64,000 nt of DNA, from NCBI GenBank assembly GCA_032718475.1, contig JAUCBJ010007777.1:1-64000 (forward strand). The letters run 5' to 3'. Every line of letters begins with the position of its first letter. Positions within the stretch are counted from its first letter, which is position 1. Below the pieces are notes generated by a model that made no database searches, was not told the origin of the DNA, and worked only from the letters and a program-made list of their open reading frames with translations. Positions 1 through 56,200 of the stretch are shown here, piece after piece. The position numbers and the translations under genes were made by a program. This DNA comes from Nemertoderma westbladi. Lineage: Eukaryota; Animalia; Xenacoelomorpha.

Positions 1-130
1 GGGGGGGGGACAGGGTGACATTCCCCCATTACAATATCAACAATATACTCGAACAGCAACGAGAACACCGAACCCCCTGGACGAGAACAGGTCGTGCGAC
101 ACGGAAATATGGAGGGGGCCGTTAACCCCA

Positions 131-1069: not shown

Positions 1070-1164
1070 ATATAAACCTACGCGCGATACGTGAAGGACT
1101 ATATAGGGAACGCTATAATCCAGGATTCGAATGTCAATTACATCGGGACGGAACCCATAAGACC

Positions 1165-2167: not shown

Positions 2168-2273
2168 CGAAGAATAAGAGGACGTATAAAGGAGGCAGTG
2201 GGAGAGTGCCTACTGGAAAAAGGGGCACTTCAGAGTTAAGTCGTCCAATGTGTTGGACTGAGGGGGGTGGGAA

Positions 2274-8277: not shown

Positions 8278-10190
8278 TAAATTGGAGAGATACGCCTATT
8301 CCTACTATCGGAAGAGACGGTAACAATACCTGCAATATCCTACTGTAAAGTTTGTAAATCAAATCATAAATCCGACCTTCTCACCAAAACAGTAAACCCC
8401 AAGTAAGCGAATATATTGCAGTATCGATCTCTTTTAACCGGTGAGGCAGAAAACAGTCTACGAGCAGACAAACTTCGATAAAACAAAATCCCGCGCAGCG
8501 AATCCTAAAATCAGGCTGACTCACTGACGGACTAAAGGGCTCGTATACTTTGCCGCGGTGTGATTTATATGGTTGGGCAAAGGGACGCTAGCTAGGTATA
8601 GAGCAGATTTGGAGATGTCTAACTAGCGAGCAAAGTGCAGTAAGGACGAAAGTTAATTTTATATATTTGAGGTGTAAATAATTTCTAACGCGCGTGTGTT
8701 AATTCTGAACGGTCAAAGCAGTTTTGCTCCTTCACATATATAATTACTGGGTACGGTGTGCATTTTACGAATATTCTAATTTTATAACTTGTAGGTCCAA
8801 TACTCACGAATGATAAGGTTCCTTCCCCTCTTGCGTATTTCCAGGACTCAAATTCAGGCATAAGGTTAATACTACGCCCAGAATTCGGCAATTTTAGGTA
8901 CCAGGTCCCTGATACTAAGAAGAGATGTGTTAGTTTACTACTGTAGGCGTACGGGTACTAATAGCTATCCTGGCTCCTATCTAGAATTTTAGTCACCCAG
9001 GTAGTCCGGGTAACTTCCTATTAGGGCGTTGGCGGGGACACGGTAGATGTTAGTATATCCCTGATAGCCTCAATTTATTTGCGCCTAGCGTAAACTGCCC
9101 TACCGCCTGAACGGTACAATCCCAATTCAGGTGAAAACACAGCAACCCCCTAGCCTACAAGTTCTGATGTAACGGACACCGTTGTACGGCAAATAGTCGC
9201 ACACACACCTGTACTTAGCAAGAGTTAAGCGTACAGTTTGCTGCACCCTAACCAATGTGTATGCCTTGTACCGGTGTGCCTACGTCCTATCTGCGTACTA
9301 GTATCTGCTCTCTCTCCCTCTCCCCCCGTAGGAATATGAAGGTCTACTGCGGTTTTTCCCTGAATCAAGACAGTACAGTCCCTATGATGTAATTTTAGGC
9401 TTGCAGCGTGTCACTACGTCTACCTTTGATCTTTTGGTCTTACACTTAGGTAGCAAGGATCGAACGCTGTCTAACCTTTCAGGCGATGGGCGAATAACAC
9501 TAGATGGTATTGCGGGTTGTCTCTCGTCTACATTCCCGTGATGTTCCCGTTCATTGCTGCGGCCCGATCTCTAGCTGGCCATCCTGTCCCTGAGTTTGTT
9601 CACCGTAGTGAAACCATATTAAAACAGATAGAAAGGCTGAGAGATGTGACTAGTATTTCTGACTTTATTACAAAACATATAATAACTATTATACAATAAA
9701 CAATGTAATCTGAAATAAGACAGAAAGCGAATGATGGAAATTGCAGTGAATAACTAATGAACAAATCGCACCTTTATATACTAAATTTGTGCTGCAATCA
9801 ATCGAGAAAATTCTCGATTGTTCTATGGGTTCTAACAAGGTTTTAAAGATAGCTTATTGGTCCAGCTAATATATAACTTGCACGACATTGGTTACAATCA
9901 AATAACTACAGCCTTATTGGTACAGACAAATGCAATTAATTTGTAGCGGTTAATTTAAATGAGTTGAAATTCTGCACAAAAAATAATTCGCACTTACTAG
10001 GATTCGAACTCGATACCTACTACACATATAATTTCCAACGCTCTACCAACTGAGCTACTGAACCACTTGACCGATAGATGCATAATAGATAGAACCAATA
10101 CTAATGAGAACTCAAAGCAATCTTTACAAAGTTAATTCGAATAAAATAAAATTTTGAAAATCCACGGCATTTAGGGAATATAATTCTATA
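8278..10190 (-). repeat. 3' LTR (1913 bp)
   Basis: Near-identical to 22174-24083. Identity starts at TAAATTGGAGAG and ends at ATAATTCTATA. A short PPT-like GGAGCGG lies directly upstream on the minus strand (10191-10197). Confidence 0.93.
9978..10064 (-). ncRNA. tRNA-like Pol III cassette in the 3' LTR (A box, B box, T6 terminator)
   Basis: Minus strand reads GGTTCAG-TAGCTCAGTTGGTAGAGC (A box, intact D arm)...GAGTTCGAATCC (B box)...CGAATTATTTTTT. The acceptor and anticodon stems do not pair, so it is not a canonical tRNA. Confidence 0.6.
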
Positions 10191-12227
10191 CCGCTCCATG
10201 AAAACAGGATATTATCGTGCATAAAATATACGGTTTTCACCAATAATCAATCAAACTATAGAATACTTAGGGCGTACTTACATATTTACAATCAAATTTC
10301 AAACAATACTTCCTTTCTACGTAATGATTCGATACAAAATAATTACAAATTCAAACTTTACGTATTTAAGGCTTTACTAAGTAAGTACAATATAAATCTA
10401 AATTAAATTCACCAATATAAATCTATTGCATCTCAAATATTGCATAAATTCAAACAATTACAAATACAAATAAATGAAAACAATAAGAAAGGCTCGCGAG
10501 TCTTCCATCTACTATTGCATCTCAAATATTGCATAAATTCAAGTAATTACAAATACTTTCGTACCTAAATGTAGATTGCATAAGTTTGGAATAATTACAA
10601 ATATGAGTCTTTCTGAGCACAAAATTTTCTGTCTATAAAACTTTCTCTTTAGGTACAAATACTGCTTATAAAATATAAATTGCATAATATTCGGAACAAT
10701 ATAAATTGCATAAGTTTGGAATATAAATTGCATAAGTTCGGAATAATTACAAATATAAAATATAAATTCTTACTAAATATAGATCTTACTAAATATAAGT
10801 CTTTACTTAAATATAAATATAGACTGCATAAGTTTAGAATAATATAAACCTTTGCATCTCAAATATGAAACATAAATCTTTCAAATATAAGTTCCTTCTA
10901 AATATAAACTTTCTAAATTTCATAAATTCGGAACAATCACTTGTGTCCTTCTGGGCTCCTCCCCGAGGCGCACCCACGAGGCGGACACCTTTCCACCACC
11001 CCTGGGGCCAGTCCGACTGCTTGTTATTATCAGACCGGGCCGGAGGGTGGCCTGATGCTTCCCGGGTTCAATTTTCAATTCCCCGATCACACCAGCACAG
11101 CTCGTCGAACGTGTAGCCAGATGGGCGGCTACTGTCAACTTACTGTGGCCTGACTGTACATTGAGCCAACTCAAAGTATAACAAAGAGTCAACCGGCAGG
11201 TGGACCAGTCGATAGCGATCGAGCACCAAGGTCGCCCTTGGGCCTAACCGACGGTCTTGTCCCATGTGGGCTTGCGCTACCCAACATGGAATTTTGACTC
11301 GTTTTCACCTGCCTCGCCGGCAGTATTTAAAAAACAATACTGTCTGTAGCTCAAAAGCTACTGAACAAGTAACCACTTACCAGTCACTGTACACGTGTAC
11401 TCAACAGATGTTCACGAAATCAAGTACACAACGGTAAGCACAAAATCGAACACATACCATGCACACACAGAGACAAAATCGGGAAAGACAAAATCGGGGT
11501 CAAATCAGAAAGACAAAATCGGAAGGGACAAATTGTATCGATCGGAGGCAAATCGAGAGTACTTTATTTTACCGACAGGGTAAAATAACTTTGTGTGCAC
11601 AAAGTATGCTGGGGCGCAGTAAAGTATGGTCCTACTAATACCAGCGGCGTCTTGTCCAACTGGCAAGGGTTCCCATACCCACTCGCAGTGGCCACACATA
11701 CAATCACGTGTACTCACGTACCTACAGCAACAGAAAGCTCAAAGACCCGAACAAATCCCAAAGACCAATCAGCTGAACATGGAGACAATAACATATAGTA
11801 TCAAAAAAACGGAACAGCTGATGGCCAAAGGAACCCATCCAAGCCCCAAGCAAACTGCCACTGGTTGCTCACATACAAAACATAGTTCACACCACATGAG
11901 CCACAAATCACGCCATGCCACCACCCCTACTGTGTACAGGACTGGCAGTACGGCAACAGGCCGACTAGACGGTACCACGGCACCATGGCAATTCATGGTT
12001 CGCTAGACACGAGGGCCTTCAGTGACTCCCTAGCACTATATATGCGGATTTAACGTGCCCCCAGACCCTCACGAGTCCACCGCCGCCTGTTATTTGCACC
12101 CCTATAGAGACCTCACCTCTTTAGGTACAAATTACATAAGTTTTCTAAATATAAAACATATAATTCAAAATAAATCACAAATCATAAGAAAGGCCCACGA
12201 GTCTTACGTCCACCCTTGCCCTCCCTT

Positions 12228-14039
12228 TTATCGTTTAGTTGATCGAGCCCTGCCGCGTCCTCGAAAACTGCGCACAGGTGACTTTGCTCGCGATATGGGA
12301 CTAATGGGGCGAGTCACTGGTTTACTTGGGACGTTGAGAGACGGTGCAACTATTTCCTCGCAAATTCGTCTATTTGGCATCCCAAAACCTCGACCAATTC
12401 CTCGTGACCGATCAGTTGTCGCTACAGTTGGTAGAACGTCTGGGAACGCGCGAGGAGTGGACGACGCAGACCCAAGAGTAGCTTGCGCCCCCTGTTGATC
12501 AGCTGGTGTATGTCCCGATCCTCCTACCGGTTCTCTTGGAAGTGATACCGTATCCCGAGTAACTCGAATAGTCGGCTCAACTCCCTTGCGTTCTTCTACA
12601 TTAATAATTTTCTTCAATTGTTGGCCTACTTTCTGGACCCGTATGATCCTACCCTGCCCGTCCTCCCGAGGGTGACGTGCAGACGGCGCAACCGGAGTGG
12701 CTGATATATTCGTCGCCTCTAGGACCTCTTCTTCCTCGAATACGCTCGCTCGTATACGTTTATGGTAAAACGCGGCTCGGTACGCCCATGCGACGGTTAA
12801 CCAAGCTCCTTTATTCCGCTTTTCGGTTCGGAAACGATCAAATTCACCATACGTGATACGATTTACGACTTTCTGAAAATTCCACGTGTTCTTGTTATCC
12901 GGGTGAATCTGTAACAGATACTCGCGCACCACTCGGAATCCGCTGTCGTGGGGCAAAATATCAACAACCTCGATAAGTTCGTCATATTGAGGCATAGCGG
13001 AGATATATCCTTCCGACATCATCGTCTGGGGATTTACCGCCCAAAATCCGAGATGCGCTCTCATCGGAAACCGTCTTCTCTGTGCCGATACATGTTCGTC
13101 GGCTAAATCTTCCCACTCATCAAATAACTTCCTCACAAGTTTTACAGATTCGTGTTCATAAGGTATGTCCCTTAGTTGGCATTCAGATGCTCGATGTCCC
13201 TTTATATTGCAATAAGTACATTGAGCCATAAATCTCCAGCAAGTATAAAAGGTATGAGACCCTTGATCCCCACACCATCCACAGATTAACTGAGTCGTAG
13301 TAATGTGCTTTCCACTGCACTTTGTCATATGATGTCCAGCGACGCCACATTTACTACACATCGTATTGGCAGGGTACCACACTCGTTCGTATATAAGATC
13401 TCCAATCGGTCGAGCGCTTCCTCCCATACTATAATCGTAATCATCTGGGTCTATGGGTTGGTAGGTTTCTGAAGGTTGTATACAAACTATAGCATCTGTT
13501 GCTTCAAGTTGTCGAATCTCCGTCTGAGATTTCTTCGGGAGGTTCCTTTCTTATCTCAAGAAGTTCCTCTAAAGGATCGTCGGCGATCGTAGTAGTTACT
13601 TCGAATTCATCACCAAGGTGACCGATAGGCGCACGCGTCTGCCGTGATTCATCCGTAATCTCCACGATACGTTCTCCTTCATAGGGTAACAATGTAAACA
13701 TAGATGGTCTTTCGATAAGAGATCCCGCACAGCGAAGATACACGTCTCGAAATATACTAAATCCTGCTCGAGTAAAGGCATTGCTGTCTTTGCGAGCTTC
13801 GCTGTACTTTCTGATAATTCCTTTATACCAAATATAGTGTAGTCTTTTGCTCCAAATCGTTCGAATGAAGCTGCCGCCTCCTCTTGGATATCATATCCCC
13901 ATCTCGGCTCTCTTTGTATCCCTTTCTCCATAATTAGAGGTGTAGTTACATAATCATTACTACTAGAGGGAATACAACAGAGTTTGTGGTTAGTTGTGAG
14001 GAGACGTGAGAGTTTCGTCTGCCTTTTGGGCTTCGACAA
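12228..14039 (-). CDS. Accessory ORF of the LTR element with three CCHC-type zinc knuckles; 399-aa open core (12228-13427, frame open back to about 13550) plus frameshifted upstream pieces (13504-13743, 13596-14039)
   Basis: CSKCGVAGHHMTKC, CGWCGDQGSHTFYTC and CTYCNIKGHRASEC, followed by an Arg/Ser/Gly-rich C-terminus. It lies between the integrase stop and the 3' LTR, in the sense orientation. Confidence 0.7.
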
Positions 14040-14590
14040 CGCTCTAACCTCCTACCCATAGCCTAAGATCTAGGGTTTCTTTAATGACACGCTGCTTCTT
14101 ATCTAAAATTTTTTGCCGAAGTAAAACGAATTTGGGCTAAACTGGCCGTGAGTCTAAAATACTCACCTTTTGATCCCAAACTATTATCAGAAAATAAGCA
14201 GTCAAGAATTAGTAATAAATATAGGGGAGTCTATTTTGACGTAACTTATTGAAACAAGACCGTGTAAAATTTAATTAAAATTTTAAGAAAGGCTCGCAAG
14301 TCTTCCTCTCTTGTTTCTCTAATTTTTAAGTTCCACCCGACTGTACCCTGAAATCTATTCACTGGAGAAAATTTTAAAAATTTTCAAATCCAAATGGATT
14401 GTCTAAAATTTCGAAAATGTCTCAATATTGTGAGTTCCAAGTAGAATTCCATTTCTTATACCTACAAATCCCGCTCCTATGTGACACATAAGGGTACTAC
14501 CCTCAATGTTCACATATAAAGACAATGGAATTCTACCGCTGTCCTTACTACGGTGTACAGGTACGTGGAAATCTATTTTTAAACTCCTAA

Positions 14591-17500
14591 TTATTTACTA
14601 GTATTAGGTGGAGATTTGTAATCTCCAGACTCGTTACGAGTCTCTTCAAGGAGTACGAGACGTTGAGTCGGTCTGTCTACTGTACGACCGTCAATTGTTC
14701 GTACCGTCACAGTTCTTGTCACTCCATCCATAGATGGATGTGTGGCTAAAATGACACCTGTTATCCAGAAGCGTCTTTTCAGATTCACTTCTGCCAACAG
14801 CACGTGATCTCCCGGCTTTAATGCGCGGGTGTTATTGTACCAGTTTGTTCTGGCAGAAATAGAGGGCAAATAATGGTTTTGCCATATTTCCCAGAATTTG
14901 TTAGCTAGTAGTTGCGTGATTTTCCACGCTTTTCTACCATAGCTGTCGCTTTCTATTGGAATAGAAATCGGTGTCAAAGTCGTCGGTGCCTGCATTAGCA
15001 GGTGTGCCGGTGTCAAAGCAAACTGAGATTGTTTGTCATCGGGTACTAATACTATTGGTCTAGTATTTAGTATTGCCTCGATTTCAACAAACAATGTTGT
15101 CAGTTGGTCGTCTGTTAATATGTGGTTTACTGGAATGACCTTTGCCATTGCTGTCTTTATAGATCTAATCAGTCTCTCCCAGACTCCGCCTCTCCAAGGA
15201 CTATCTGGAGGATTGAACTTCCAAACAATCTTGTGAGGTTGCAGTTCGTTCGAGATTTGATCATGATCTAATTTCTTAAAGGCTCTAGCAATCTCATTCC
15301 GAGCACCAACGAAGTTTGTCCCTTGGTCTGAGTACAAGCATTTTACTAGTCCGCGTCTAGCGATAAATCGCCGCAGTGCTAGTATAAACGCGTTGGTGGA
15401 AAGATCCATCACACGTTCAATGTGAACTGCCCTACTGGACATACATGTGAAAATCAGTCCCCAGCGTTTTACTAGTATACGTCCACGTTTAGTATGTATG
15501 GGACCAAAGCAATCAATTCCAGTCTCTGTAAAAGGTGGTCTGAATGCTTGAAGTCGTGCTTGTGGTAGTTCACTCATTTCTTGGGTACCTATTCTAGAAT
15601 GTACCTTTTTACAAATAATACACGTACGTGTCACTGAACTTAATGCTTTACTGGGTCTAATTAATACAAATCTAGTACGTAAGTAGGAAAGACAGTGGTG
15701 TCTTCCAGCGTGTTTCAGATGTAAATGTGCGTCCAGTATCATTGCACGTTGTAGTTCGTGATGTTGCGGTATTATTATTGGGTATCTAAAGTTTGTGTTA
15801 AAGTCAATGTTTTGAAGCCGAGATTTATGACAAATTAAGCCATTATAAATTATCGGACTCCAACTCAGTATCGGTGACGACTTGATTGGTTGACCTTGAC
15901 TTATAGATGTGAATTCGCGCGCGAAATATCTCAGTTGGTAATGGCGAATTAATTTAATCTCACACCTTTCAATCTCAGCCAATGTAAGTCGACGTGTAAA
16001 GTCACGTTTGCCTTTAACGTATTGTACAAAACGTACAATCCACGCTAGTTTTCGGCAAGCGTTTGACCAAGAATCTGTTAGGTTTACAATACGGTCGACG
16101 TAAGTATTTGTGACGTCATCAGGTAAGTCAATGGAAATTTTGGAAGGTTTTGAATTACTAGAAGGGCCCACGGGTCCGCCGGTAAGTATTCCCTTGTTGA
16201 CTGTTGATCCGTCCGGGTCTACAAGTAATTTGTCCTTCTTTGTCTTCTTACCTTGATTGTCGGTACTTTGTAAGTCGATCGTTAATGGTGGTTTGAACTC
16301 TATGGGGTCAGCAGGTTTTGGTAAACTTAATTTTCTGCCGACATTAATCCCAGGTCTCACCACAGGTTGTAAGTTCGGTATGTCTCTTGAGCGCAAAGTA
16401 ACACCTGTATTTACATTAGCGTAGGTACTACCCACATCTGCAATACATGAGGTTTCACCATGCTTATGGTTGCTCAAATGTGTCAAAATTGGTAGTTTGT
16501 CAATAGAAGGCCGCTCCAATAGGGAAACTGCGGCTTTACTGTATGTCAGTGTGTTACTAACGTCTGGTGGAACATTTCGTGATATGTCTGGCAAAATGTC
16601 TGGTTGGCTGTCTAGTAACGTGTCTGGTTGACCGTCTGGCGATATGTCTGGTTGACTGTCTAGTAACGTGTCTGGTTGACCGTCTGGCGATATGTCTGGT
16701 GTAGAAAGGCTCGCAAGTCTTCCTCTCTTGACCTTTGAAGTTATATCTTTCCATTTCGCCTTCGGTTTTTTCTTGAGTTTCGCCGCCGTCGTCCTTTTCT
16801 TTGTATCGACGGGCATTGTTGGTGTCGTTGGGGTAGGTAGACTCGCAAGCCTATCATCTGTCGTCGATGGAATCTCTAGCTGACTCGTCTTCTCCCCAAG
16901 TTCTAAACTCACCTTGTGGATTAGCTGCTCCTTGTGACTTATCATACTAGTTACACGTCTGTTATGTTTTGTATGTAAGGTAGTATGGTCCACGTCGTGT
17001 GAAAAGGAATGAATTGAATTTATAGTTAATAAACTACATGTACTCTGTACATCGTCTTCCTCGTCACTTACGTCTAGTGTGCGCACAGGCGCTCGAGTAT
17101 ACCACCCTATCGGCGTTCTGCAGGCGTATGCGTTTCCTGCTACAACTGCCGATGGTCTGGTTTCCCACACCTGATGTAGGTTGAATTGATCCGTCCCGAT
17201 CAGCATTGCTACCGATCTATAATTGGCAGGACATTCGGGTACACCAAGGTGTCTGAAATACTTACGGTCCTCTAGAGATTGTGCCGGCACTGGACCTAGT
17301 AGGTTACTAAAGTCCTTCGTGGCCGCAAAGGTTAGATCTCTAAAGGGCAACAAAGACCTCTCCCTCTCGCTGTGTTGCGATCTTGGAAGAAGAGAGTCTA
17401 AGTCCAACTTAACTCGTGTCACTGGTATTGCACGCTGTCCGTGCATACTACTTACTGTATAACTTACGTGTTTACCTTGTCTAAGATCTGTTACGACGTC

Positions 17501-20500
17501 AGCTATCTTTTCATCTACGTAACTGTGAGATGAGGCTGAGTCTAGAATCGCGTAAATCCTCTTACTCCCTTTTGTGCCAGTAACTTTAATCGGGATTACA
17601 CTGAATCCCTTCAGTTGGTCAGTGGTCAGGAGCGCGATTGACGGTTGTTCGTCTCCATTTGAATATTCGTCGTCTTCTGATTCTTCGTCCGACGATCCGG
17701 ATTGTTCTGAAAAGCAATCCTCTATATGGGTCACGAAAGTCGGAGTCGTTTTCGATTCCCGTTTTCGGTAAGCTGCATCACATCTCGCTGCTGCTTCCGG
17801 GTGTTCCCTGGCGAAGCGTTTCGTCGGCGTGTGGCTGTCTGTGTGGAGCAGACCGTCGTGGTTGCGTCCACAGGATGGACAAGTGTCGGTATTTGGGCAA
17901 TCCTTACGGACGTGTCCGTGTCGCGTACACCGCCAACAAGAGTCCAGTGGCCGTATCTGCAGCCGTCGTTCTTCTGAGTTCAACTCGCGAAATTGTCGAC
18001 AACCTCGTAACTTGTGACCAATATACCGCTTACCCAAATGTTCGCAGTATTGGCACCCGTTGAAGTCGGCGCTGAGTTGCTGTCTCGTCTGTTTCGTTCC
18101 AATGGGCGCAGATACTCTATTGCCGTCTGAGAATTGTCGTGATTCCGTCGGTGTGGCGTAAGTGGCCGTCTTTGTGGATGTTGTCTGGGGTTTTTGTCGG
18201 TTTGAAGAGGATGGCAGTGTGATCCCTTCTGCCACGATGTGCTGGTCGGTATAGTTAGATCGAGTCTCTACTACCGCCTCCCTGGATATTAAAAGGTACA
18301 CATCTTCTAATTTCAGGAATCCTCCTCGCTCCTCTCGCTGATATTCGACCTTCCTCCACTCCCGACGAAGTCGATGGTGGAGTCGTCCTATTATCTTTAA
18401 TAGGACTGTAGGTGTATTCCCGTAATCAAGTTGTCCAATTGATCTTAAGGTAGTGATAGCGTTCTTAATCTCGTCAGCCAGTTTTAGTAAGTCGACGGGT
18501 TTAGTGATAGCCCCTCCCTTACAGAGTTCTTCTATTACTGACCTGGCCATACTCACTGTACCTCCGTATATCGAAGTCAAACGATCGTACGCTAGTTCGA
18601 AAGCGTCCGGTACACCAACGAAAGTCTCCGCCAAACGTTTAGGTTCTCCTGACAACGTTTGGAGCAAGTAATTGAACTTCTCTCGTGACGTAAAGGCGCA
18701 CACGGCGATCTGGGATTCAATATAGTCTACGAAGGTATGCCAGTGTTTTGAGCTACCAGAGAACTTCGGTGGTTGTTGTACCGGCAATCCCTGTCTGGCT
18801 GCGAATTTCGCTATCTCCTCGGCAACGTTCAGAGTTTCGCGTCCTTGGTTGGTAACCTGGTTGATGTTCTCCCTTCTGGGCGCTTTTCCCTGATACGATG
18901 TGGGGTTTGAAGGTACCGGTCTTTGTGGTCCCTTCGGGTGTCTATTGTGTTCGAATTCGGAATTTCTCGAACTGTCGGTTTGAACTTCCTCCAGACGCTC
19001 CTCGATCTGAGCCAACTTGTTGACAACTGGTCGCAGAATGTCGGCGAACTGTTGTGTACTAATTGCGTCCGTTGGTTGTAACGCCTTCTGTGTTGGTGTA
19101 TTCTGTGGAGGATTGTCTGCAAAGGAGTTGTCTGAACGCTCGCGTTTATATTCATCGGCCGCCCCTGTTCTAAATACCTCGCGTTTCGGGTAATCCGATT
19201 CGCTCGAAGTACTACTATCATCCGGATATGGTGGTCGACGTGCTCGCGTCCGTTGCGTCGTATGAATTCTAACATTCCGTTTCGGAACATCGTCCACTGA
19301 TCTCCGTTGTTCGGTAGGCTCACAAGTCTTCCTCGAAGTCGTAGATTGCGATGTAAACTGGTTGAACGGTCGCGTCTCCACTGTTCTCCGTTGTTCGGTA
19401 GGCTCACAAGTCTTCCTCGAAGTCGTAGATTGCGATGTAAACTGAACCGGTCGCGTATCCACTGTTCTCCGTTGTTCGGTAGGCTCACAAGTCTTCCTCG
19501 AAGTCGTAGATTGCGATGTAAACTGGTTGAATGGTCGCGTCTCCACTGTTCTCCGTTGTTCGGTAGGCTCACAAGTCTTCCTCGAAGTCGTAGATTGCGA
19601 TGTAAATTGGTTGAACGGTGGTCGGACGACCGCGTTTGAATCCAAAGGCCTTGTAGGCCGAAATGTCATTGGGTAATCGTAGTGCGTAACGGGTTTAGGT
19701 GTCAAAGGTGGACTCACCTGTTTTGTCGTCAGTAGTGCAGGTCCGACTAATAAACTACTACGATCTGTAATCGGTGGGTTACTTACCTTGACTTTCGGAA
19801 TAGGCGACGACGTTGCCCTTGGCGGGGTAAACTTGTCCGGAATAACAAACCTGTGTTCCGTCACACCATGGATAGGAGAGATATCGCTGCTACCAGCAAT
19901 CGAAATAGGTTCCTTAGTAGTAACCGGTGCAAACATATGAGTTACCTGTGGGAATCGTTGACACACGTCTTTTACTAATTGTCGTTCCCGTCCGGGTGCT
20001 CCTACGCTTCCTTCCTTCTTCCGTTCCTGAATTTGGCGATGTCTTACCTCTAACTGATCCAAATCATGTCCGTCACGAGATCTCATCGATCGATCGCGGG
20101 CCTTTTGATCCAGATCTTCCTCAGCGTTCGCTAATTCTCTCGCCTTCTTCTCAAGTTCGAAATGAAGTTTAGCTGTCTTCTCTCGTTGTTCCGTTTGTCG
20201 TTGTTGCGCCTCAAATTCTGCTTGTCGTATGGCGGATTGAGCTTTTATTTGCCGTGTTTTCATTTCGGCCCGTGCTTCCGAAACTAACCTGTCTCGTTCT
20301 AATTCCGCCGCTGCCGCTGCCGCTTGTCGCTCTGACTCTGCCGCTGCCGCTGCCGCTTGTCGGGCAATGTCTACCTCTAACCTTTCTACTTCAGCTGCTT
20401 CTAATTCAGCTTGTTCCTGTAGATGAGAGATTCTCGCTATATTCGCAACGCGTAGCTTCTCTTCCTCTACTGCTGCCTGCATCACTAGAAGTTGAGCTTG

Positions 20501-21364
20501 TTCCTCCATTTCTCGTCGTTGTCGGCAGAATTCTTGCTGTTGTCGAGCAACTTCTGACGTGACTATACTTCCCTCGCAGATTTCGCTACGAATACTCACC
20601 AGCGATTGATTTAGTATTCCCGGTGCCGATTCGATTTGTGCGAGTGAAGTTTCCCTCGTAGCCTCCGGCACGGTTTCCCAATCCCCGACGTCTTCGCCGC
20701 ACATGCGCAAGTGATCCGTCAGGTGTTTCAATTGTCCATCCAGTCGGTACAGTTCCTGTTCTTCCTCGGGTTGTAATAATTCGTCCGAAACTGACTCACC
20801 TAACAACTGGTCCGCTTGTTCCTGTTGTATCTGTCTAATCGTCGACTTAAACTGAATCAGTTTCTCTCTAGTGATCATTAGTTTCTCTAGGATTCTAAGT
20901 TGAGTATCCATGTCCTGTCTCTGTCTAGCTAGATCTTGTAAGCCAACTAAATTATCTACGGACTTATATACTTTACTCTGTACTCTAACCTGGAGGGTGT
21001 AGAACTCGAATCGAGACATCGGAGCGGTCAACCCGTCTAATATGCGTTGGCCTTCTCCAATACTCCTGGTTATATGCGCCATGTAACCTCCGACGCTTCT
21101 AACCACACTTTCTGTGCTTCCTGCTGAACTTACCAATTCCGTTTCCCTATATCTAGGTTGCGGAACAGCTAGAAAGTCCTCGGTCCTGCCGTCGCCTCGT
21201 ACTACGGCATCCGGTACTCCCGTTGGATGTACTGGTGACGCACACGGTGTAGGTTCGGTAGGCTCGCGAGTCTTCCCCTGTTGTTCTCCCGCTGCTGACT
21301 TATCCGCGTCACATGAGTCATAGTCGGTTTGTGTGTTCTTCGTATAGTCTTGTTTGTCACTCAT
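14591..21364 (-). CDS. BEL/Pao Gag-protease-integrase polyprotein without RT/RNase H (2257 aa)
   Basis: Coiled coil; Gag (PPKFSG..EKFNYLLQTLSGEP); knuckles CWRCTRHGHVRKDC and CPSCGRNHDGLLH; protease AILDSASSHSYV; integrase H2C2 (HLKHAG..CIIC), GIDCFGP, SDQGTNF, GVWERLIRSIK and the C-terminal DGVTRTV..RP. No YxDD RT or RNase H motifs. Confidence 0.92.
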   Translation of the reverse strand: MSDKQDYTKNTQTDYDSCDADKSAAGEQQGKTREPTEPTPCASPVHPTGVPDAVVRGDGRTEDFLAVPQPRYRETELVSSAGSTESVVRSVGGYMAHITRSIGEGQRILDGLTAPMSRFEFYTLQVRVQSKVYKSVDNLVGLQDLARQRQDMDTQLRILEKLMITREKLIQFKSTIRQIQQEQADQLLGESVSDELLQPEEEQELYRLDGQLKHLTDHLRMCGEDVGDWETVPEATRETSLAQIESAPGILNQSLVSIRSEICEGSIVTSEVARQQQEFCRQRREMEEQAQLLVMQAAVEEEKLRVANIARISHLQEQAELEAAEVERLEVDIARQAAAAAAESERQAAAAAAELERDRLVSEARAEMKTRQIKAQSAIRQAEFEAQQRQTEQREKTAKLHFELEKKARELANAEEDLDQKARDRSMRSRDGHDLDQLEVRHRQIQERKKEGSVGAPGRERQLVKDVCQRFPQVTHMFAPVTTKEPISIAGSSDISPIHGVTEHRFVIPDKFTPPRATSSPIPKVKVSNPPITDRSSLLVGPALLTTKQVSPPLTPKPVTHYDYPMTFRPTRPLDSNAVVRPPFNQFTSQSTTSRKTCEPTEQRRTVETRPFNQFTSQSTTSRKTCEPTEQRRTVDTRPVQFTSQSTTSRKTCEPTEQRRTVETRPFNQFTSQSTTSRKTCEPTEQRRSVDDVPKRNVRIHTTQRTRARRPPYPDDSSTSSESDYPKREVFRTGAADEYKRERSDNSFADNPPQNTPTQKALQPTDAISTQQFADILRPVVNKLAQIEERLEEVQTDSSRNSEFEHNRHPKGPQRPVPSNPTSYQGKAPRRENINQVTNQGRETLNVAEEIAKFAARQGLPVQQPPKFSGSSKHWHTFVDYIESQIAVCAFTSREKFNYLLQTLSGEPKRLAETFVGVPDAFELAYDRLTSIYGGTVSMARSVIEELCKGGAITKPVDLLKLADEIKNAITTLRSIGQLDYGNTPTVLLKIIGRLHHRLRREWRKVEYQREERGGFLKLEDVYLLISREAVVETRSNYTDQHIVAEGITLPSSSNRQKPQTTSTKTATYATPTESRQFSDGNRVSAPIGTKQTRQQLSADFNGCQYCEHLGKRYIGHKLRGCRQFRELNSEERRLQIRPLDSCWRCTRHGHVRKDCPNTDTCPSCGRNHDGLLHTDSHTPTKRFAREHPEAAARCDAAYRKRESKTTPTFVTHIEDCFSEQSGSSDEESEDDEYSNGDEQPSIALLTTDQLKGFSVIPIKVTGTKGSKRIYAILDSASSHSYVDEKIADVVTDLRQGKHVSYTVSSMHGQRAIPVTRVKLDLDSLLPRSQHSERERSLLPFRDLTFAATKDFSNLLGPVPAQSLEDRKYFRHLGVPECPANYRSVAMLIGTDQFNLHQVWETRPSAVVAGNAYACRTPIGWYTRAPVRTLDVSDEEDDVQSTCSLLTINSIHSFSHDVDHTTLHTKHNRRVTSMISHKEQLIHKVSLELGEKTSQLEIPSTTDDRLASLPTPTTPTMPVDTKKRTTAAKLKKKPKAKWKDITSKVKRGRLASLSTPDISPDGQPDTLLDSQPDISPDGQPDTLLDSQPDILPDISRNVPPDVSNTLTYSKAAVSLLERPSIDKLPILTHLSNHKHGETSCIADVGSTYANVNTGVTLRSRDIPNLQPVVRPGINVGRKLSLPKPADPIEFKPPLTIDLQSTDNQGKKTKKDKLLVDPDGSTVNKGILTGGPVGPSSNSKPSKISIDLPDDVTNTYVDRIVNLTDSWSNACRKLAWIVRFVQYVKGKRDFTRRLTLAEIERCEIKLIRHYQLRYFAREFTSISQGQPIKSSPILSWSPIIYNGLICHKSRLQNIDFNTNFRYPIIIPQHHELQRAMILDAHLHLKHAGRHHCLSYLRTRFVLIRPSKALSSVTRTCIICKKVHSRIGTQEMSELPQARLQAFRPPFTETGIDCFGPIHTKRGRILVKRWGLIFTCMSSRAVHIERVMDLSTNAFILALRRFIARRGLVKCLYSDQGTNFVGARNEIARAFKKLDHDQISNELQPHKIVWKFNPPDSPWRGGVWERLIRSIKTAMAKVIPVNHILTDDQLTTLFVEIEAILNTRPIVLVPDDKQSQFALTPAHLLMQAPTTLTPISIPIESDSYGRKAWKITQLLANKFWEIWQNHYLPSISARTNWYNNTRALKPGDHVLLAEVNLKRRFWITGVILATHPSMDGVTRTVTVRTIDGRTVDRPTQRLVLLEETRNESGDYKSPPNTSK
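19305..19617 (-). repeat. In-frame 78-84-bp tandem repeat (4 copies) in Gag
   Basis: The peptide (PFN)QFTSQSTTSRKTCEPTEQRRTV is repeated four times. Confidence 0.9.
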
Positions 21365-22162
21365 TTCGGTAGTTGTAAGTCAAGTAAAGTGAGTGTCAAA
21401 GTATCGAGTTTTACCGTATTTATATCTAAACGGTACTAATTACAGTCTTATAAAATTAGCCTACCGGCTGATTTTATAGCAGATGGATAAAATTAGCCTA
21501 AACGGCCAATTTTACAGCAAATAAATGTCACGGAATAAGTATATAATAAAATTAGCCTAGCGGCCAATTTTATAACAAATAAATCGGATAACGATATGCG
21601 TTATCAAAAGGTAAATTAAATACAATAATACGGACTAATTCAGCAATGAACAAAGAAATCATACGGAATGCATAAATACTTGAGACAGTGGAACCCACAA
21701 TAATTTTAACTAATACGGTAATGCCTAACTTATTTATGCAACTTTTCGAACTCACCCACTCCAATAATTCTCCAGAAAAACAGATTCCCAGATACAAACC
21801 GAACGTGAACCTTTCCGTTTTTAACGTTGCGGACGAAACGCGATTTTCCCAACCAAAGTTGTTGAGTTATCTATCTCCCAAACTTGCTAAACACGGTCTT
21901 GCTCCCGTTACAGTCTAGAAATGAGTTCTGAATCCTGAAAAACAAAAGAGTTAGGTTTTACTTTACGAAAATTTTGTACCGGTACAATATGGTATTTTAA
22001 ACCCTTTTAAACACCGGTATTCAATTCCAAAATATTTTACACGCGGTTCAAATCAAATTTTATTTCAAAAAATTAGCACTTAGCTAATCAAATACAAATT
22101 TTTACCTCAAAATACAGAATTTTCAAATAACTTTAGTCCTACCGAACCGTAGTTCAGTAAAA

Positions 22163-22173
22163 CATATTCCTAC
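22163..22173 (-). promoter_or_regulatory. Putative non-tRNA primer-binding site GTAGGAATATG abutting the 5' LTR
   Basis: Directly follows the LTR end and lacks the TGG of tRNA PBSs. It is exactly complementary to the minus-strand 11-mer CATATTCCTAC at 23233-23223. Confidence 0.6.
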
Positions 22174-24083
22174 TAAATTGGAGAGATACGCCTATTCCTA
22201 CTATCGGAAGAAACGGTAACAATACCTGCAATATCCTACTGTAAAGTTTGTAAATCAAATCATAAATCCGACCTTCTCACCAAAACAGTAAACCCCAAGT
22301 AAGCGAATATATTGCAGTATCGATCTCTTTTAACCGGTGAGGCAGAAAACAGTCTACGAGCAGACAAACTTCGATAAAACAAAATCCCGCGCAGCGAATC
22401 CTAAAATCAGGCTGACTCACTGACGGACTAAGAGGCTCGTATACTTTGCCGCGGTGTGATTTATATGGTTGGGCGAAGGGACGCTAGCTAGGTACAGAGC
22501 AGATTTGGAGATGTCTAACTAGCGGGCAAAGTGCAGTAAGGACGAAAGTTAATTTTATATATTTTGAGGTGTAAATAATTTCTAACGCGCGTGTGTTAAT
22601 TCTGAACGGTCAAAGCAGTTTTGCTCCTTCACATATATAATTACTGGGTACGGTGTGCATTTACGAATATTCTAATTTTGTAACTTGTAGGTCCAATACT
22701 CACGAATGGTAAGGTTCCTTCCCCTCTTGCGTATTTCCAGGACTCAAATTCAGGCATAAGGTTAATACTACGCCCAGAATTCGGCAATTTTAGGTACCAG
22801 GTCCCTGATACTAAGAAGAGATGTGTTAGTTTACTACGGTAGGCGTACGGGTACTAATAGCTATCCTGGCTCCTATCTAGAATTTTAGTCACCCAGGTAG
22901 TCCAGGTAACTTCCTATTAGGGCGTTGGCGGGGACACGGTAGATGTTAGTATATCCCTGATAGCCTCAATTTATTTGCGCCTAGTGTAAACTGCCCTACC
23001 GCCTGAACGGTACAATCCCAATTCAGGTGAAAACACAGCAACCCCCTAGCCTACAAGTTCTGATGTAATAGACACCGTTGTACGGTAAATAGTCGCACAC
23101 ACACCTGTACTTAGCAAGAGTTAAGCGTACAGTTTGCTGCACCCTAACCAATGTGTATGCCTTGTACCGGTGTGCCTACGTCCTATCTGCGTACTAGTAT
23201 CTGCTCTCTCTCCCTCTCCCCCGTAGGAATATGAAGGTCTACTGCGGTTTTCCCTGAATCAAGACAGTACAGTCCCTATGATGTAATTTTAGGCTTGCAG
23301 CGTGTCACTACGTCTACCTTTGATCTTTTGGTCTTATACTTAGGTAGCAAGGATCGAACGCTGTCTAACCTTTCAGGCGATGGGCGAATAACACTAGATG
23401 GTATTGCGGGTTGTCTCTCGTCTACATTCCCGTGATGTTCCCGTTCATTGCTGCGGCCCGATCTCTAGCTGGCCATCCTGTCCCTGAGTTTGTTCACCGT
23501 AGTGAAACCATATTAAAACAGATAGAAAGGCTGAGAGATGTGACTAGTATTTCTGACTTTATTACAAAACATATAATAACTATTATACAATAAACAATGT
23601 AATCTGAAATAAGACAGAAAGCGAATGATGGAAATTGCAGTGATAACTAATGAACAAATCGCACCTTTATATACTAAATTTGTGCTGCAATCAATCGAGA
23701 AAATTCTCGATTGTTCTATGGGTTCTAACAAGGTTTTAAAGATAGCTTATTGGTCCAGCTAATATATAACTTGCACGACATTGGTTACAATCAAATAACT
23801 ACAGCCTTATTGGTACAGACAAATGCAATTAATTTGTAGCGGTTAATTTAAATGAGTTGAAATTCTGCACAAAAAATAATTCGCACTCACTAGGATTCGA
23901 ACTCGATACCTACTACACATATAATTTCCAACGCTCTACCAACTGAGCTACTGAACCACTTGACCGATAGATGCATAATAGATAGAACCAATACTAATGA
24001 GAACTCAAAGCAATCTTTACAAAGTTAATTCGAATAAAATAAAATTTTGAAAATCCACGGCATTTAGGGAATATAATTCTATA
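22174..24083 (-). repeat. 5' LTR (1910 bp)
   Basis: Direct repeat of 8278-10190, with several minus-strand CCAAT motifs at about 23745-23815 in the presumed U3. Confidence 0.93.
23871..23957 (-). ncRNA. tRNA-like Pol III cassette in the 5' LTR
   Basis: Same A box, B box and T6 arrangement as 9978-10064, with one substitution. Confidence 0.6.
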
Positions 24084-24385
24084 GTGGAAATAGCTTGATA
24101 ATTATCTTAGAGGTCGTAAATATATCCCCTACATTGTTAATAATAATAATTAATACATGTGTTTGTTTTTTTTATCTATTTTTATATATTTCTGGAACTG
24201 AAGTGCAAATATGAATATTATTATTATGAATAAGAAATGAAGGTGAACGAACAACTACAGTAAATGTGGTATTTTGTTTGGCTGTATTTCCTGTATAACA
24301 GATTCATTGAAAGCGAAAGGTACGTATGTAAGTGGCATCATGGAGTTTGCATATAACTATGCGTACATACATACATACGTCTGAG

Positions 24386-36393: not shown

Positions 36394-36492
36394 CTTCGTT
36401 TTGCTCCAAGCTGGGTAGTGCCGGGTATGATCCCATGCAGCGCGCCAATTAAATTTCGTTTATAATTAGTGGGTCAACTCAAGCCAGCGATA

Positions 36493-48800: not shown

Positions 48801-51416
48801 GAGTCAAAATTGTAGAAAAAATTCCCGAAGTTTGCGACGTTTGCGAAATTCGCGAAGAATCCGTCAGTTTCTGTGCCCTAATGGTTTCGTGACGAAACAA
48901 TAAAATCTTACACACTTAACACACACGAACTAATTTAATGTGTGTATTAGTATGCCATGCCTGAATAATTAAATAGAAATTGAATTAATGAACGCTATTT
49001 CAACATGAAATCTACGGAATCAATACACAACACACGCACACTACTGAATTCAAAAATTTATATAGATTGCAACTTATATTTGGCTACCTTTTAATGGGTG
49101 ACTAATTTAATTATTCACCCCTATATATTTGTAGCCTTTTTAATTTGTGCCTCTAATTGAATCAAACATTAAACTATGTCACAATATTGGTCTGTCGGTA
49201 GCTGGTCACTGATTCTCTCATAAATTTGTTAATTAGTCGCTGCTCAGTCATTGAACATTTGAACACGTGCTGCTCGAAGACCCCACAACGTGTAATAAAT
49301 TAAACTTTAGCTAATCACAAACAGAGCTGTTCAGTATTATGAGAATAAAGTAATTATGAATAGGCCTAGTACATTTTCATTCGACGCTTATGCCTTATGG
49401 CTATCATCGCATGAATTTAATATTAGTTTTTTTTTATTGCTAATTAATAATAAATTATTGGGCAAATAGAGCATTATGCCCTATATCCTGCCCTTACAAT
49501 TACATGTTAGAAATATTGATTGACCTTGACTCCATGTTGAGATGATCTGCTACCCACACTGATCGAATACCAACCAGGAACACGCCAACACAGCTCCAAC
49601 TCCATCCACTGGACTTTGCACACTTAGTAAACGCAATAATTTTTATTGTCCGTTTAAATCCTTTTTTTGTCCTTTTTTTTTATTTTTTATGTCCTCCAAA
49701 AGTCTAACGTTAGGTTCCATGCTACCGGTTTCTCTACTCCTGTTCTCTCAGGCTATCAGTACCGGTATTCGTATATATAGTGTAAAAGCTTCTGTGGGAT
49801 CTAGCTGGCCCTTTTGCTTTGCGGTCCGAGTTCCCCCCAGGCGCTGGAATACTCTAAAAGGGCTTTCTAACTATATATATATTCCCCTCGCCCGCAAGGT
49901 ACCGTAATAGGTGTTTTAACGGACATAAAAGTCATTCTTCTAGATACGTGCTTTGGAGGACATGGTAAGGCAAAAAACCCGCAATACGGCAAATACTTTT
50001 ACACAGCCTAGCCGTGATGATTCATATTACGACATCTAACAGCTGGTTGCTGACATGGAAACGGCCATTGGACACATGGTTCTTTGTTTAGCTTGAGCCA
50101 ATCAGAGCGATTTTTTCTGTCGATGTGGAGATATTCGGCCGATCATGCTAGAGTGTTCAGTCTTACTGTTTTTTATGATACTGTTGTGTTGTTGGTATCT
50201 AGGCCAGGAACACCGGCTCTAGAGTTAATTCGTTTCATACTTTTAGAAGAAACATTAGTAGGCTTAAGATTATAGAGCGTATAACTGTTATCAGTTCATA
50301 TCATACCAGTTCAACTCATAGCGACTCAATCGGCACATACTGTTTTGTTATCTTAACCTACCGTCTTAATGCTGTTTACTGTTGTGTTTTAGTTGAATAT
50401 TATTTGGAGAACATTTATAAAGAACCCAAATTTCCCAATTTTCTTGATACACTACAGGTTAGAGAGACGGGTTATATATAGCGATTGCGACTTATATTAT
50501 TGTGTATGTAGTGAATTTAATGCTATTTGATAAGCACTACATTGGTCCGTTGCTGTTCTCTCTATATATGATAAAATTCATTGACGGTCGGCAAATTAGT
50601 GAGCAGTATTGTGTGTTACCGGTAGTGTGCATGATTGTGACTGATAACTAAGCATTTCCTAAAGAATGCGCCTCATACGTGAATCATAAGCCTTACCGAC
50701 TTACCGTTGTGATTAGTATAAGTCATATCTCCGTTTACCTAGATAGAGCGCCACGTCCTAAAGGAACTGTTAATATTTCCCGAAAGTGAATAATATTAGT
50801 CAGAAATTATTTATTAACGATCAATCGAATAATACAGTAGGCTTCACTGCAATAATAATCTAAGCCCTAAGAATCCAGCCCCCCGGGTATATCCAGCGGG
50901 TGAATGGATGCGCACTAGGCTGGCTTCTGCTAATGTTGTGTTTATTGGTATTAAATATTTGTCATCTTCTAAAGTATATTTATAAACCAAAAGACATATA
51001 AATTTTGGCAGGTTAAACTGCTAAAGGTCTTCCAAAAGCGCGTACAATAACAGTTATTGACTTTATTGCAGTAAACAATAAAGTTGAAAGTACCGGCCGA
51101 CCGGTAAACCTGAACCGGTACTTCTGTAGGTCAGTAGGCCCAACTGCCAGAACCGGCACTGCTGTAGGTCCGTAGGTCCAACTGCCAGAACCGGTACTTC
51201 TGTAGGTCCGTAGGCCCAACTGTCCTAACCGGTACTTCCAGTATAAGTACATTAGTATTATTCGATTTGATTATTGCATACCGGTAGGCTGTTTAAGAGA
51301 TTAGGGACTGTACACCCCTTGTTTCTTTTGGAGCTTACTTATTTCTGTCAGTTTTATTTCCTAGTAAGTTAATATTGAGCTGAAGACGTGTAAGTCTGCT
51401 CAGATTGTACAGATAA

Positions 51417-51975: not shown

Positions 51976-53274
51976 ATTATTCAGAGTTTATGCGATTATT
52001 CGCAACATTCATGTCCCCAAGTTTATTCCTACAGTAATTGTGCTTGTTATACATACCGTTATAGTTAAATTAACCCCGGTACTACACGGGCTGCTTGGCG
52101 TAGGAAAAGACTGGTGACTTTGTGCTTCGGTCACTCCAGCGGATGCCGTGGTTCTTTTAACTGTTCAAGTATATTTAACTACTGATTATTTGTTGTACCA
52201 GTACTTGTACCTAATTTAGGGTTTAGTGTACAGTGCTTTCCGAAAGTAATTAGTGTGTAGGCAGTATATTTGTGTTGTAAAGTGGTTAATAGGCACGCTG
52301 GATCTGGTAGTCCGCGGTAATTAACTTCTAGGTAGGAACACTCCGTGATACATAACGTAGTACCTATAGCGATACGGTTATAGGTCGTCAGGCGGTGGTA
52401 TTTTCCTATCTGGACAGTGCAATATATTTACTACTACTTATTATTTTCAAATACCGTAGTACCCTGTCTGTTGTAATAACCAGAATTCTAACCCTTTGTT
52501 AGACTGGTTTGTAGTTTCCCTGTAAAATTACCCTAAAATTTCGTACGTAATATATTTTTGTTGTGTTTAATTAGAGAATTAATCTCACCCATATCGTAAG
52601 TAATTTGTAGTATTAAGTAACTTAAGTAAATTAGAATTATCAGTTTTAGTGTCAAATAAATAGCACTTCACTGAGAGCGCACAGCTTCTGTGTAGTGACA
52701 CCCCAGAAATAATAACATTTATTTCAAATATTGACAAACCCCTTTTAAACGGGTATATATCTATTATAAATCAACTCAAACGATTTATAAATAGTAGGCC
52801 TGCCATACAATAACTAGGTCTCAATATCAGTTGGACTACTGCTTAAATAACGGTAATAAAGTAAGTTAAAGTAACCAAGTAACCCTAAAATATTCAGAAA
52901 TTCAATTATTCTACAATAATTGACATACCGGTATTTACCATAGGCTTATTATATTTATTTCTATAAATTTGAGCTGAAATTATACCGGTACTCTGTAATT
53001 AATTCTAGTTCATAATTATACTTATATATACTATCAGTGTAATCTATACCGGTATTCACGATAGGCCTATTATATATTTATATATATTTGTGCTAAATTA
53101 TATACCGGTACTCTGTGACAAACCTAGTTTACAATACTTATATATACTATAAGTGTATACCGGTATTCTAATATACTGTAATAAATTAACGGTACTAGGC
53201 CAACGGTCATACTGAATTACTAGACTTGCTTTAACTGAAACTATAGCAGTAGACATTCAACTGTATAGCTAAAC

Positions 53275-56200
53275 ATGTCTGACACTCGGCAAAACCTGTC
53301 AGACAGTCTAATCGATACAACCATCTGTGACACAGATAGGAGTGTGGAGCGATTAAGAAAGGAGTTCAGTTCACCTCCTACTGCAAGAAAGGTTATCCCT
53401 CCAGTAGTATCAGACCCTAGGCTAATCCACCATAGGTCCATCATAGGCACTCGGGCCCAGGTCAAATGGAACCAAGAGGCAGCTGTCTTATCGCAGCAAC
53501 ATCTTGGTCAAGAACCTAGTTCCCAGCGACCCGATAGCTCCAGTAGTTCGGATACTGTAGAGCTGAACCCCGAACGCGGAGTGCAGATGGCGGCTACAGC
53601 ATACTCGGACCCCCTTCTCACCCTTCCTGCCGCAGTGCTAACTACTATATTGATTGCGGTGGAGGAACATCAAGCCAACTGGTCGAGAAATAAGCGAGCG
53701 ACCCAAGATAATTATGCGGGATACGCCAGGGAAGAATTGATGTCTATTGTCGAGTCACAATGGAACTTTCCCGGACCCGGACTCCCGTTAGATCTGTCCG
53801 AAGCTACTTGGGAAGACATACATAGGATGGGAGTGACTAAAGATACGATGGATCCAGCTGTTTGGAAGAGGTCGGCAGCAGGATATGTGCAGGGATTCTT
53901 CGGCTCCTTAGAGCGATTAGAAGAACAACTGTTTCGACAATCCCAAGGACCTCAAGAGCAGGAAGAACTGCTATATCAAGTACGCGAAAGAACCCTACGC
54001 ATTCGACTAATCCTATCAGCTTTTGAGGAAACTTCCAAAAGAAGACAGGACACGTCGCTGCAGGTTGCTGTCAAGACTTGGTTCCAGCGGGTAGGTCTCA
54101 AAGTTCAGGAAACGGCCCAGTGGAAATCCCAGCTGGCTGAGAGACCAACCTATGAAGAACCAACCGATGCCACCCTTTCTCAAGCGGAAAGTGAAGTGAC
54201 AGCAGAGAGACCGCGAACTAGAGACGCTATCGACATTTATCTGTCCGACTATCAGCGATTCCTAGGAGACGAAGAGTTGAGGAGACGGCTGTCTGGACTT
54301 TCCCCTAATAGTGAAGGAACCAAGCTTGTGTTGGATTCAATCGATGCGGAAATGTTAGCTGCAAACCAAGCTGAATTTGATGAAAAACTCCGCCTCGCTA
54401 GAGTCCGAGAAGAACAAATAAAGAAAAAACGGATAGAGGAAAGAAAGGCAGCAGCAGTAACGGCGGCAGAAGCAGAAGCAGAAAGAAAAGAAGCAGAAGC
54501 AGAAAGAAAGGAAGCAGAAGCAGAAAGAAAAGCAGCGGCGGCAGAAGCAGAAGCAGAAAGAAAAGCAGCGGCGGCAGAAGCAGAAGCAGAAAGAAAAGCA
54601 GCAGTGGCAGAAGAAGAACGGAGAGCGTCTGAGGAGACTATCCAACTGGAGTTGGAAAATTTACAAGAGACGCAAGACCACATAAATAAACAGTTAACTG
54701 CTAGTCAAATGCAGATGATGAGAAAATCTACTCCCAAGCGCCAGGGATACACATCCTCAGAGGAAGGCGAGACCACCGATCCTGAAGGCGGAGGAAATAG
54801 ATCTCATCTAAGCAGGCGTAGAAAAACATCTTACCGTCACAAATTGCCTGATTTGCCCCCAGCTGTTAGAAGACAACTAGCTAGCACAGACTTGAGTAGT
54901 ATAGAACCTACAGACCAAATTATTAAGGTCAAAAGACTCCCTACTATAGTTGATGAGCCTGAAATAATTAGGCCTGTCGTTCCCAAAGTCACCCCTGTGT
55001 TAGAGACCCCTGTACTTCCAGAGCTTAACTCTAAATTCCCTTTACATAGTACTACACTGCCTGTACCCGGTAGAACAGTCAATGAGAATATCCCTGTCCT
55101 GATAGCTGAGAGAGAAATCAAAGATTTGTCTCCCGTCGTCCCACGTCAGGTCGTCAGCCCGCTACAATGTTGGCGACTCCCGCTTCGGCGGTCGAGTGGG
55201 TAGAGGAGGGACGGCGGGGGATGAATCTCCTGCTCGGACAGATGCAGGAGACTGTCCACCAACTTAAGGGAACAGTAAGGGAAGGTAGAGCAGAGTTGCA
55301 AGAAGTGCAGCAAAGTATCGCACTAGAACGCGACAAATTAGTCAACATACAAAAGGGCATACCAATACCCCCAGTAACATTGTGTCAACCTGTTAGGTCT
55401 GAAGTATTACATGCGCAAGGTGTGGAGCCTACACGCATCTATACTGCTAGTGAAGTAGAAACTCCTATAGCAAACCCTATTAAGGGTGATTATGGACCTG
55501 TTGTCAATGATATTCCCTATAGACCTGATAATGATCCGAGAAATTTATATACCGATAATTCGATATTAAATAACACGATGGCCCAAGAAAGCTTTACGCG
55601 TCAGATGGCTAGAACAGAAGCCCGCCAAGCGGTCAAAGTGGGAGAGATCGTCAAATTCAATGGAGATGAGATGAAGTGGTTACCTTTCAACGAATATTAC
55701 AAAGACAGCATACAGAACTCTGTGCTATCTAACGGAGAGAAACTTAGGTTCCTCATCAAGTGTTTGGAAGGACCTCCCAAGTTAATGGCATTAAAGTTTA
55801 TTGGACATCCAGAAGGATTAAGACAAGTTTGGGATACATTAAACATCAGGTATGGTAACAAGGATAACATAGCTAAGTATTTGTATGCAAAATTAGTAGC
55901 CCCCCGACACTTCCTTAGTAGCGGGATTATAGAGTTTTCCGATGAGATTCAAGAGATCTGTATACAACTGGACTGGTTAGGTAAGTCGCATGAATATCAG
56001 AGTTCCATGGTTATTGGAGCCGTAGTCTCTACTTTACCAAAGGATGGCGTATGTACACGCTGGGACAAGAAAGTGTTGTACATGAATGAACAACAACGAC
56101 GAAGTCCTACCATGGCTGATCTCATGTCCTTCTTAGATGGTGAAGTAAAACTACAACTCATCAAGCAGTCCAGAGAGAAAACATCGGAAAATAAGGTAAG

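Follow-up and report, generated by a model that had tools for sequence, protein, structure and literature searches.

ICTV describes BEL/Pao elements as primed by a host tRNA at an 18-nt tRNA-Arg or tRNA-Gly site, with LTRs of 0.2-1.2 kb and genomes of 4.2-10 kb (PMC8742986). A different way of starting reverse transcription is used by Tf1, in which, according to passages of PMC7175516, the RNA's first 11 bases become the primer after a cut by RNase H. Excerpts of PMC4600332 report self-priming of the Tf1 kind for Tj1, and passages of PMC6317226 contain predictions of self-priming in plants, for Tcn1 and TAR. A self-priming BEL/Pao element is not mentioned in the available passages of PMC3118150, PMC554778, PMC6238403, PMC2774666, PMC3601003, PMC5443660 and PMC3286476. 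We found no report of one in the literature on priming and on RT-less elements, of which most subscription papers and the Repbase notes were beyond reach.

We analysed a stretch of 64,000 nucleotides from Nemertoderma westbladi (contig JAUCBJ010007777.1), here called the window, which contains a BEL/Pao element on the minus strand (element 1) and another on the plus strand (element 2; Table 1). The two LTRs of element 1 (24083-22174 and 10190-8278) are 98.9% identical by blastn. A Pfam scan identified DUF1759 and three Cys-His knuckles in the Gag part of its long open frame, and these features, together with a protease, an integrase with DUF5641 and the domain order PR-(RT-RH)-IN, place the element within BEL/Pao. 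The scan found no chromodomain in element 1, and the domains are of the BEL/Pao type rather than those of a Ty3/gypsy-type pol. We collected 1197 relatives of the integrase region, and DUF5641 was present in all of the 120 listed. The RT and RNase H expected in the pol of a BEL/Pao element are absent from element 1: a profile built from 43 natural relatives gave no match in any of the six frames at E≤10, and the same profile scored 543 bits on element 2. Element 1 is a non-autonomous BEL/Pao derivative, and since it has no RT or RNase H, it must borrow RT. The first-pass annotation of this DNA did not mention this loss.

BEL/Pao LTRs have TG..CA ends and the elements are flanked by a target-site duplication. 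Element 1 has TA..TA ends instead, and comparison of its two flanks, which are unlike, revealed no target-site duplication around this copy; element 2 begins with TG. At the 5' edge of element 1 the contig depth drops from about 10^5 to under 100 past 24094, with loose ends at 24083. The family is abundant, as the summed contig depth of element 1 in runs X1 and X3 is near 10^5 compared with under 100 in the flank, although this depth is not a copy number. Within 24083-24330, one X1 contig agrees with the 5' flank from 24083 onwards and then runs into 85 other letters; it is possibly an empty-site allele. The 3' half of element 1 contains a short repeat three times (10448-10506, 12149-12207 and 14248-14306), once behind each frame. 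Elsewhere, the window has a third, broken BEL/Pao gag-like element at 1-3500 (DUF1759, no RT-RNase H match), 47-nt and 42-nt satellite arrays (24386-27382 and 35259-36524) and, 1.4 kb from the 3' end of element 1, an intronless, strongly diverged macroH2A gene (5757-6863) with at most 49% identity over its length to any listed relative.

Table 1. Features of elements 1 and 2 in the window.
Feature	Position	Strand	Basis and remarks
Element 1, 5' LTR	22174..24083	-	1910 nt, termini TA..TA; blastn pair with 3' LTR
Element 1, 3' LTR	8278..10190	-	1913 nt; primer-site complement at 9338-9328
Three CCAAT boxes (23813, 23784, 23753) and TATA box (23673)	23667..23813	-	motif scan
5' extension arm; beyond a 4x1 loop, it pairs with 22161-22155	23238..23244	-	duplex fold; q=0.04 against random LTR segments
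11-nt complement, predicted primer core; predicted cut after 23223	23223..23233	-	exact match
Purine arm, pairs with U5 end 22180-22186 (Tf1-like extension)	23213..23219	-	MFE fold from 23233; 0/300 random segments as good
AATAAA, 247 nt past primer end	22970..22975	-	poly(A) signal needed under self-priming
Predicted primer-binding site, no TGG, adjoining 5' LTR	22163..22173	-	sequence
12-bp hairpin with UACG loop, behind primer site	22136..22163	-	z -4.07; 0/200 shuffles
GT-AG intron, 1435 nt, spans primer core and primer-binding site	21935..23369	-	joint 23370->21934; donor and acceptor contexts
Open frame of 2262 codons, element 1	14591..21379	-	Gag, protease, low-complexity linker, integrase, DUF5641
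Extra frame of 440 codons, env position of element 1	12228..13550	-	three Cys-His knuckle-like motifs, no Pfam match
Polypurine tract before 3' LTR of element 1	10191..10200	-	same junction in one X5 contig
Predicted 5' LTR of element 2, TGTA..TACA	49781..51251	+	start from polypurine-tract junction contig at 49780; end inferred
13-nt complement of element 2 primer site	50823..50835	+	0/300 null positions
Predicted primer-binding site of element 2, no TGG, 3 nt past TACA	51255..51267	+	diverged X4 contig stops matching at 51267
Element 2 gag-pol, three frames, with RT and RNase H	53269..61385	+	overlap 55110-55203; in-frame stop 57960-57962

The first-pass annotation had claimed that the 11 nt following the 5' LTR of element 1 contain no TGG and have an exact complement in both LTRs that stops at 11 nt. 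We confirmed this: the complement of 22173-22163 lies at 23233-23223 and at 9338-9328, the strict match ends at 11, and the TGG of a site for a host tRNA 3' end is absent. Of 5000 dinucleotide-shuffled LTRs, 3 gave a match of at least 11 nt, as did a fraction of 0.00086 of all other window positions, giving an overall chance of about 0.001 for the match in element 1. ARAGORN found no tRNA gene in the window, and there was no Rfam tRNA match within 21800-24200 at E≤5. Among the 40 contig differences listed out of 254, none was a variant at either 11-mer. The pairing also appears to run on past the 11 nt on both sides. The claim that the bases next to the 11-mer pair with the U5 end held in the MFE fold from 23233 (23219-23213 with 22180-22186), and on the other side a 5' extension arm can pair behind the site, where the hairpin at 22136..22163 competes with it.

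The integrase tree makes elements 1 and 2 sisters (support 1.0), and their LTRs have no detectable nucleotide similarity (best E 0.35). Element 2 nevertheless has its own primer-site complement, with other letters, and its AATAAA is 241 nt past the primer end compared with 247 nt in element 1. In folding predictions the duplex probability of element 2 was about 0.5 from 50823 and 0.15 from 50825, and no pairing 5' of the core was found (q 0.77). An LTR start at about 49872 was ruled out by the junction contig at 49780, about 90 nt away; the predicted 3' end of this LTR is unconfirmed by contig breakpoints, and the 3' LTR lies outside the window. A very abundant separate repeat (49631-49770) adjoins the LTR start. 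At the other end, the polypurine-tract motif of element 2 is followed by unrelated sequence and not by an LTR (62320-64000), and a further open frame runs off the window.

One metagenome scan yielded 80 BEL/Pao loci, among which a repeat pair was present in 32 and both LTR 3' ends were readable in 10; L042 (ragged end) and L072 (pair stopping inside the LTR; near-copy of L071) were left out. Eight of the 10 anchored relatives had a complement of 10-15 nt to a site at offset 0-3 past the LTR, each a result that no more than 1 in 400 null positions could match. This complement was contiguous in L017, L050 and L054 and split by a GTAAG..YAG intron of 71-164 nt in the other five (L008, L038, L039, L044 and L071, with L008 and L038 related to each other). 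The other two are L004, which has a TGG site, and L051, which was negative with a score of 7 (56/400 null positions); in L051 a TGG-type site follows after about another 390 nt. The letters of the primer site differ in every family and the LTR complement follows them, always ending at the LTR-proximal base, and all 10 anchored primers (8 relatives and both window elements) end in A-pyrimidine. Co-variation of the primer site and the LTR 11-mer across families, which the first-pass annotation had proposed as a test, was thus borne out by element 2 and by 8 of the 10 anchored relatives. Because of this co-variation, tRNA-independent self-priming in the lineage of element 1 is likely as judged from sequence; this part of the earlier proposal of Tf1-style self-priming is supported, while its other part, a primer made of the first 11 nt, is doubtful.

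An unanchored scan of 36 further loci returned 11 at the 5% level, of which 8 were primer-site-like and L001, L068 and L074 look like chance or unrelated matches; the other 25 loci fell short of significance at that level, many of them lacking an LTR part. Pairing 5' of the core was present in 11 of 19 families at q≤0.1, and in 6/10 among the anchored ones, with a Fisher p of 4e-8 that overstates independence, as the families are related and 9 of the 19 were hand-picked from the unanchored scan. U5 extension pairing occurred in 2 of the 19, element 1 included. Four relatives have a TATA 124-144 nt upstream of the primer, and 13 of the 19 LTRs lack a TATA by the pattern used. L054 has a splice acceptor before the primer 3' half in its 5' LTR (145-326) and a contiguous primer in its 3' LTR (6924-7103), a difference that possibly stems from intron loss by reverse transcription or from a chimeric contig. 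An RT-RNase H tree with 28 rows unites 17 self-complementary loci in one clade (98/99), within which contiguous and split forms are mixed; element 2 sits apart from this clade on a long branch, near rows that are unlabelled or of the tRNA type. In this tree and the integrase tree, which have no labelled clade references, elements 1 and 2 are both outside the 17-member clade and unresolved among tRNA-type elements. This position counts against self-priming in element 1, and it is compatible with one origin of self-complementarity or with two. Two scans found no relatives among viral contigs.

Where the RNA of element 1 starts decides how closely its primer resembles that of Tf1. The first-pass annotation had placed the 11-mer in an initiator-like context downstream of CCAAT motifs. 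Both are present, but the CCAAT boxes are 520-580 nt upstream of 23233, with the TATA box at 23673 (about 440 nt upstream) in between, and the initiator-like pattern has 16 matches across the LTR, one of them at 23234. From the CCAAT and TATA motifs, transcription is predicted to start probably at about 23643. The AATAAA said to lie about 260 nt downstream is indeed found, at 22975 and 258 nt from 23233. If a second AATAAA, at 23563, were used, no repeat would remain for strand transfer once the cut is made. We also considered the primer end as a poly(A) site and rejected this, the hexamer being 11-247 nt past the primer end where present. U3 contains a degenerate tRNA-like stretch (23870-23970, and the matching place of the 3' LTR) that has a run of T and motifs resembling an A-box and a B-box. 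As an encoded primer it was rejected, as it is not complementary, received no ARAGORN or Rfam call and has a fold z of -1.29.

The intron that spans the primer core and the primer-binding site was seen as a joint 23370->21934 in one X4 contig, with 27 letters on the short side, and was absent from X1, X3 and X5. X4 is labelled 'DNA?' and X1 and X3 are DNA runs, all used as contigs, which give no starts, ends or levels. We infer from 130 T>C places that X4 is RNA; whether it is RNA or DNA copied from spliced RNA, the start of some RNA lay upstream of 23370. In X4 the 23370 donor is also joined to a second splice partner, which could not be located within the window. Two low-depth X4 contigs (22345-23044 and 23045-23410) carry 90 and 54 differences, mostly T>C on the plus strand (A>G on the element strand), which look like A-to-I hyper-editing of LTR RNA. 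X4 contig depth, which is no measure of RNA level, is high in the U3 of element 1 and rises after 50590 in element 2. Because of the joint from 23370, the promoter motifs, the pairing 5' of the core and the intron-split primers of relatives, which need an upstream exon, the primer is probably internal to the RNA, unlike that of Tf1. For the same reasons (a spliced form from upstream of 23370, motifs pointing to about 23643, pairing 5' of the core and split complements in 5/8) the start at 23233 claimed in the first-pass annotation is doubtful, although folding favours 23233-23245. The predicted probability of the primer duplex was 0.92 from 23233 and 0.92-0.93 for starts at 23233/23245, 0.64 from 23370, 0.08 from 23300 and 0.00 from 23450, 23550 and 23643, where forming it would cost 6-10 kcal/mol. 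The packaged RNA may have a second start, which the folding models would place near 23233.

On balance, we favour the view that element 1 is a high-copy, RT-less BEL/Pao element with a site complementary to its own LTR, that it is likely self-primed, and that its primer is probably a longer leader's 3' end and not the RNA's first 11 bases. The strict geometry of Tf1 could be kept if there were two promoters, one at the TATA giving the spliced mRNA and a start at about 23233-23245 giving the packaged RNA, with its first 11-22 bases as the primer. The high duplex probability (0.92-0.93), confined to starts at 23233-23245, the initiator-like match at 23234 and the U5 extension as in Tf1 are in line with this arrangement, as is a passage of PMC5341516 according to which the Tf2 primer is governed by start-site choice. 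We consider it unlikely all the same, since the LTR contains the initiator-like pattern at 16 places, the pairing runs on 5' of the core, and the intron-split primers and upstream TATA of relatives indicate that internal primers work in the superfamily.

A primer supplied in trans is improbable. Here, any LTR, whether solo or 3', could yield a separate short RNA that, once spliced if needed and trimmed to A-pyrimidine, would anneal to the genome like an element-encoded substitute for a tRNA, which would remove both the folding cost and the problem of the upstream poly(A) signal. In its favour, the family is highly abundant and X4 covers parts of the LTR far more deeply than the unique leader, but contig depth is no measure of RNA level, and the U5 extension involves bases 3' of the cut, as would be expected if pairing preceded cleavage. 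We give a similarly low standing to the idea that the pairing has been conserved as a structural or regulatory switch, with a host RNA, such as a tRNA fragment, as the primer. Against it, the site differs per family with the LTR complement following it to the LTR-proximal base, and by the rules for tRNAs the complement has no purine at the place of position 37 for a cut at 39 or 40. This idea would agree with the tRNA priming that ICTV states for the family (PMC8742986), with the half-tRNA priming of Ty1/copia mentioned in passages of PMC6317226, and with the competing hairpin behind the site. A chance match is very improbable and largely refuted, as the position is fixed at the LTR end (P about 0.001) and the pairing recurs with other letters in element 2 and 8/10 anchored relatives, even though many windows were screened and the 2.7-kb 5' region contains five other or equal 11-nt inverted pairs (4 of 11 nt including the primer pair; 10 of 10 nt).

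Self-priming from an internal leader could proceed as follows. Transcription would start in U3, probably at about 23643 behind the CCAAT and TATA boxes. Splicing from 23370 to 21934 would give an mRNA without primer or site, the unspliced RNA would be packaged, and splicing would in this way choose between mRNA and genome. The leader would then fold over the binding site with the aid of nucleocapsid and of the 5' and U5 extensions; in many relatives this step would require prior splicing of the LTR intron. A nuclease would cut after the conserved A-pyrimidine at 23223 and, by analogy with Tf1, this might be RNase H belonging to an RT that element 1 borrows from another family, for example that of element 2. 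The new 3' end of the leader would prime, and RT would copy both U5 and the 250-nt repeat as far as the cut before jumping to a 3' end polyadenylated after a signal of the 22975 type, so that the 250 nt from cut to poly(A) would serve as the strand-transfer repeat. A broader model, on which our belief and doubt are evenly divided, extends this to a widespread BEL/Pao branch and, perhaps independently, to the window lineage. These elements would use an internal leader primer cut after a conserved A-pyrimidine, with host splicing as a switch that builds the primer in some families and in element 1 deletes primer and site, turning genome into mRNA; element 1 would moreover have discarded its own RT and RNase H.

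BEL/Pao is a whole virus family defined as tRNA-primed, and descriptions of self-priming are otherwise limited to Tf1-like gypsy elements, with predictions for some plant lineages. If our reading is true, it adds a second case, large and metazoan, in which the primer is internal and sometimes spliced, and it changes the view of how priming evolved. It would also explain primer sites that are missing in LTR annotation, and such elements would be freed from tRNA supply and from silencing by tRNA fragments.

Non-autonomous LTR elements that keep some of their genes include BARE-2, Dasheng and TR-GAG. By description rather than by sequence, element 1 resembles them in being young, abundant and in need of a partner in trans, and it differs in keeping an open Gag-protease-integrase frame from which only RT-RNase H is missing. 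With the Belpaoviridae it shares the DUF1759 Gag, the triple Cys-His knuckle, the protease, the integrase, DUF5641, the LTRs and the polypurine tract, whereas the absence of a tRNA site and of RT/RNase H, the 1.9-kb LTRs, the length of 15.8 kb and the TA..TA ends set it apart from the family as described by ICTV (PMC8742986). As in Tf1 and Tf2 of S. pombe, Tj1 and the Tf1/sushi chromoviruses, as far as the available passages describe them, there is no tRNA site and about 11 nt past the 5' LTR pair with a segment of the LTR. As in the passages on Tf1, the 3' end of the primer would point into U5 and cleavage would be needed, and the bases after the primer pair with U5 in element 1, though in only 2/19 families. 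Element 1 differs from Tf1 in belonging to another superfamily and in having no RNase H of its own. Finally, where those passages make the Tf1 RNA's first 11 bases the primer, the primer described here appears to be internal, paired also 5' of the core, and split by an intron in many relatives.
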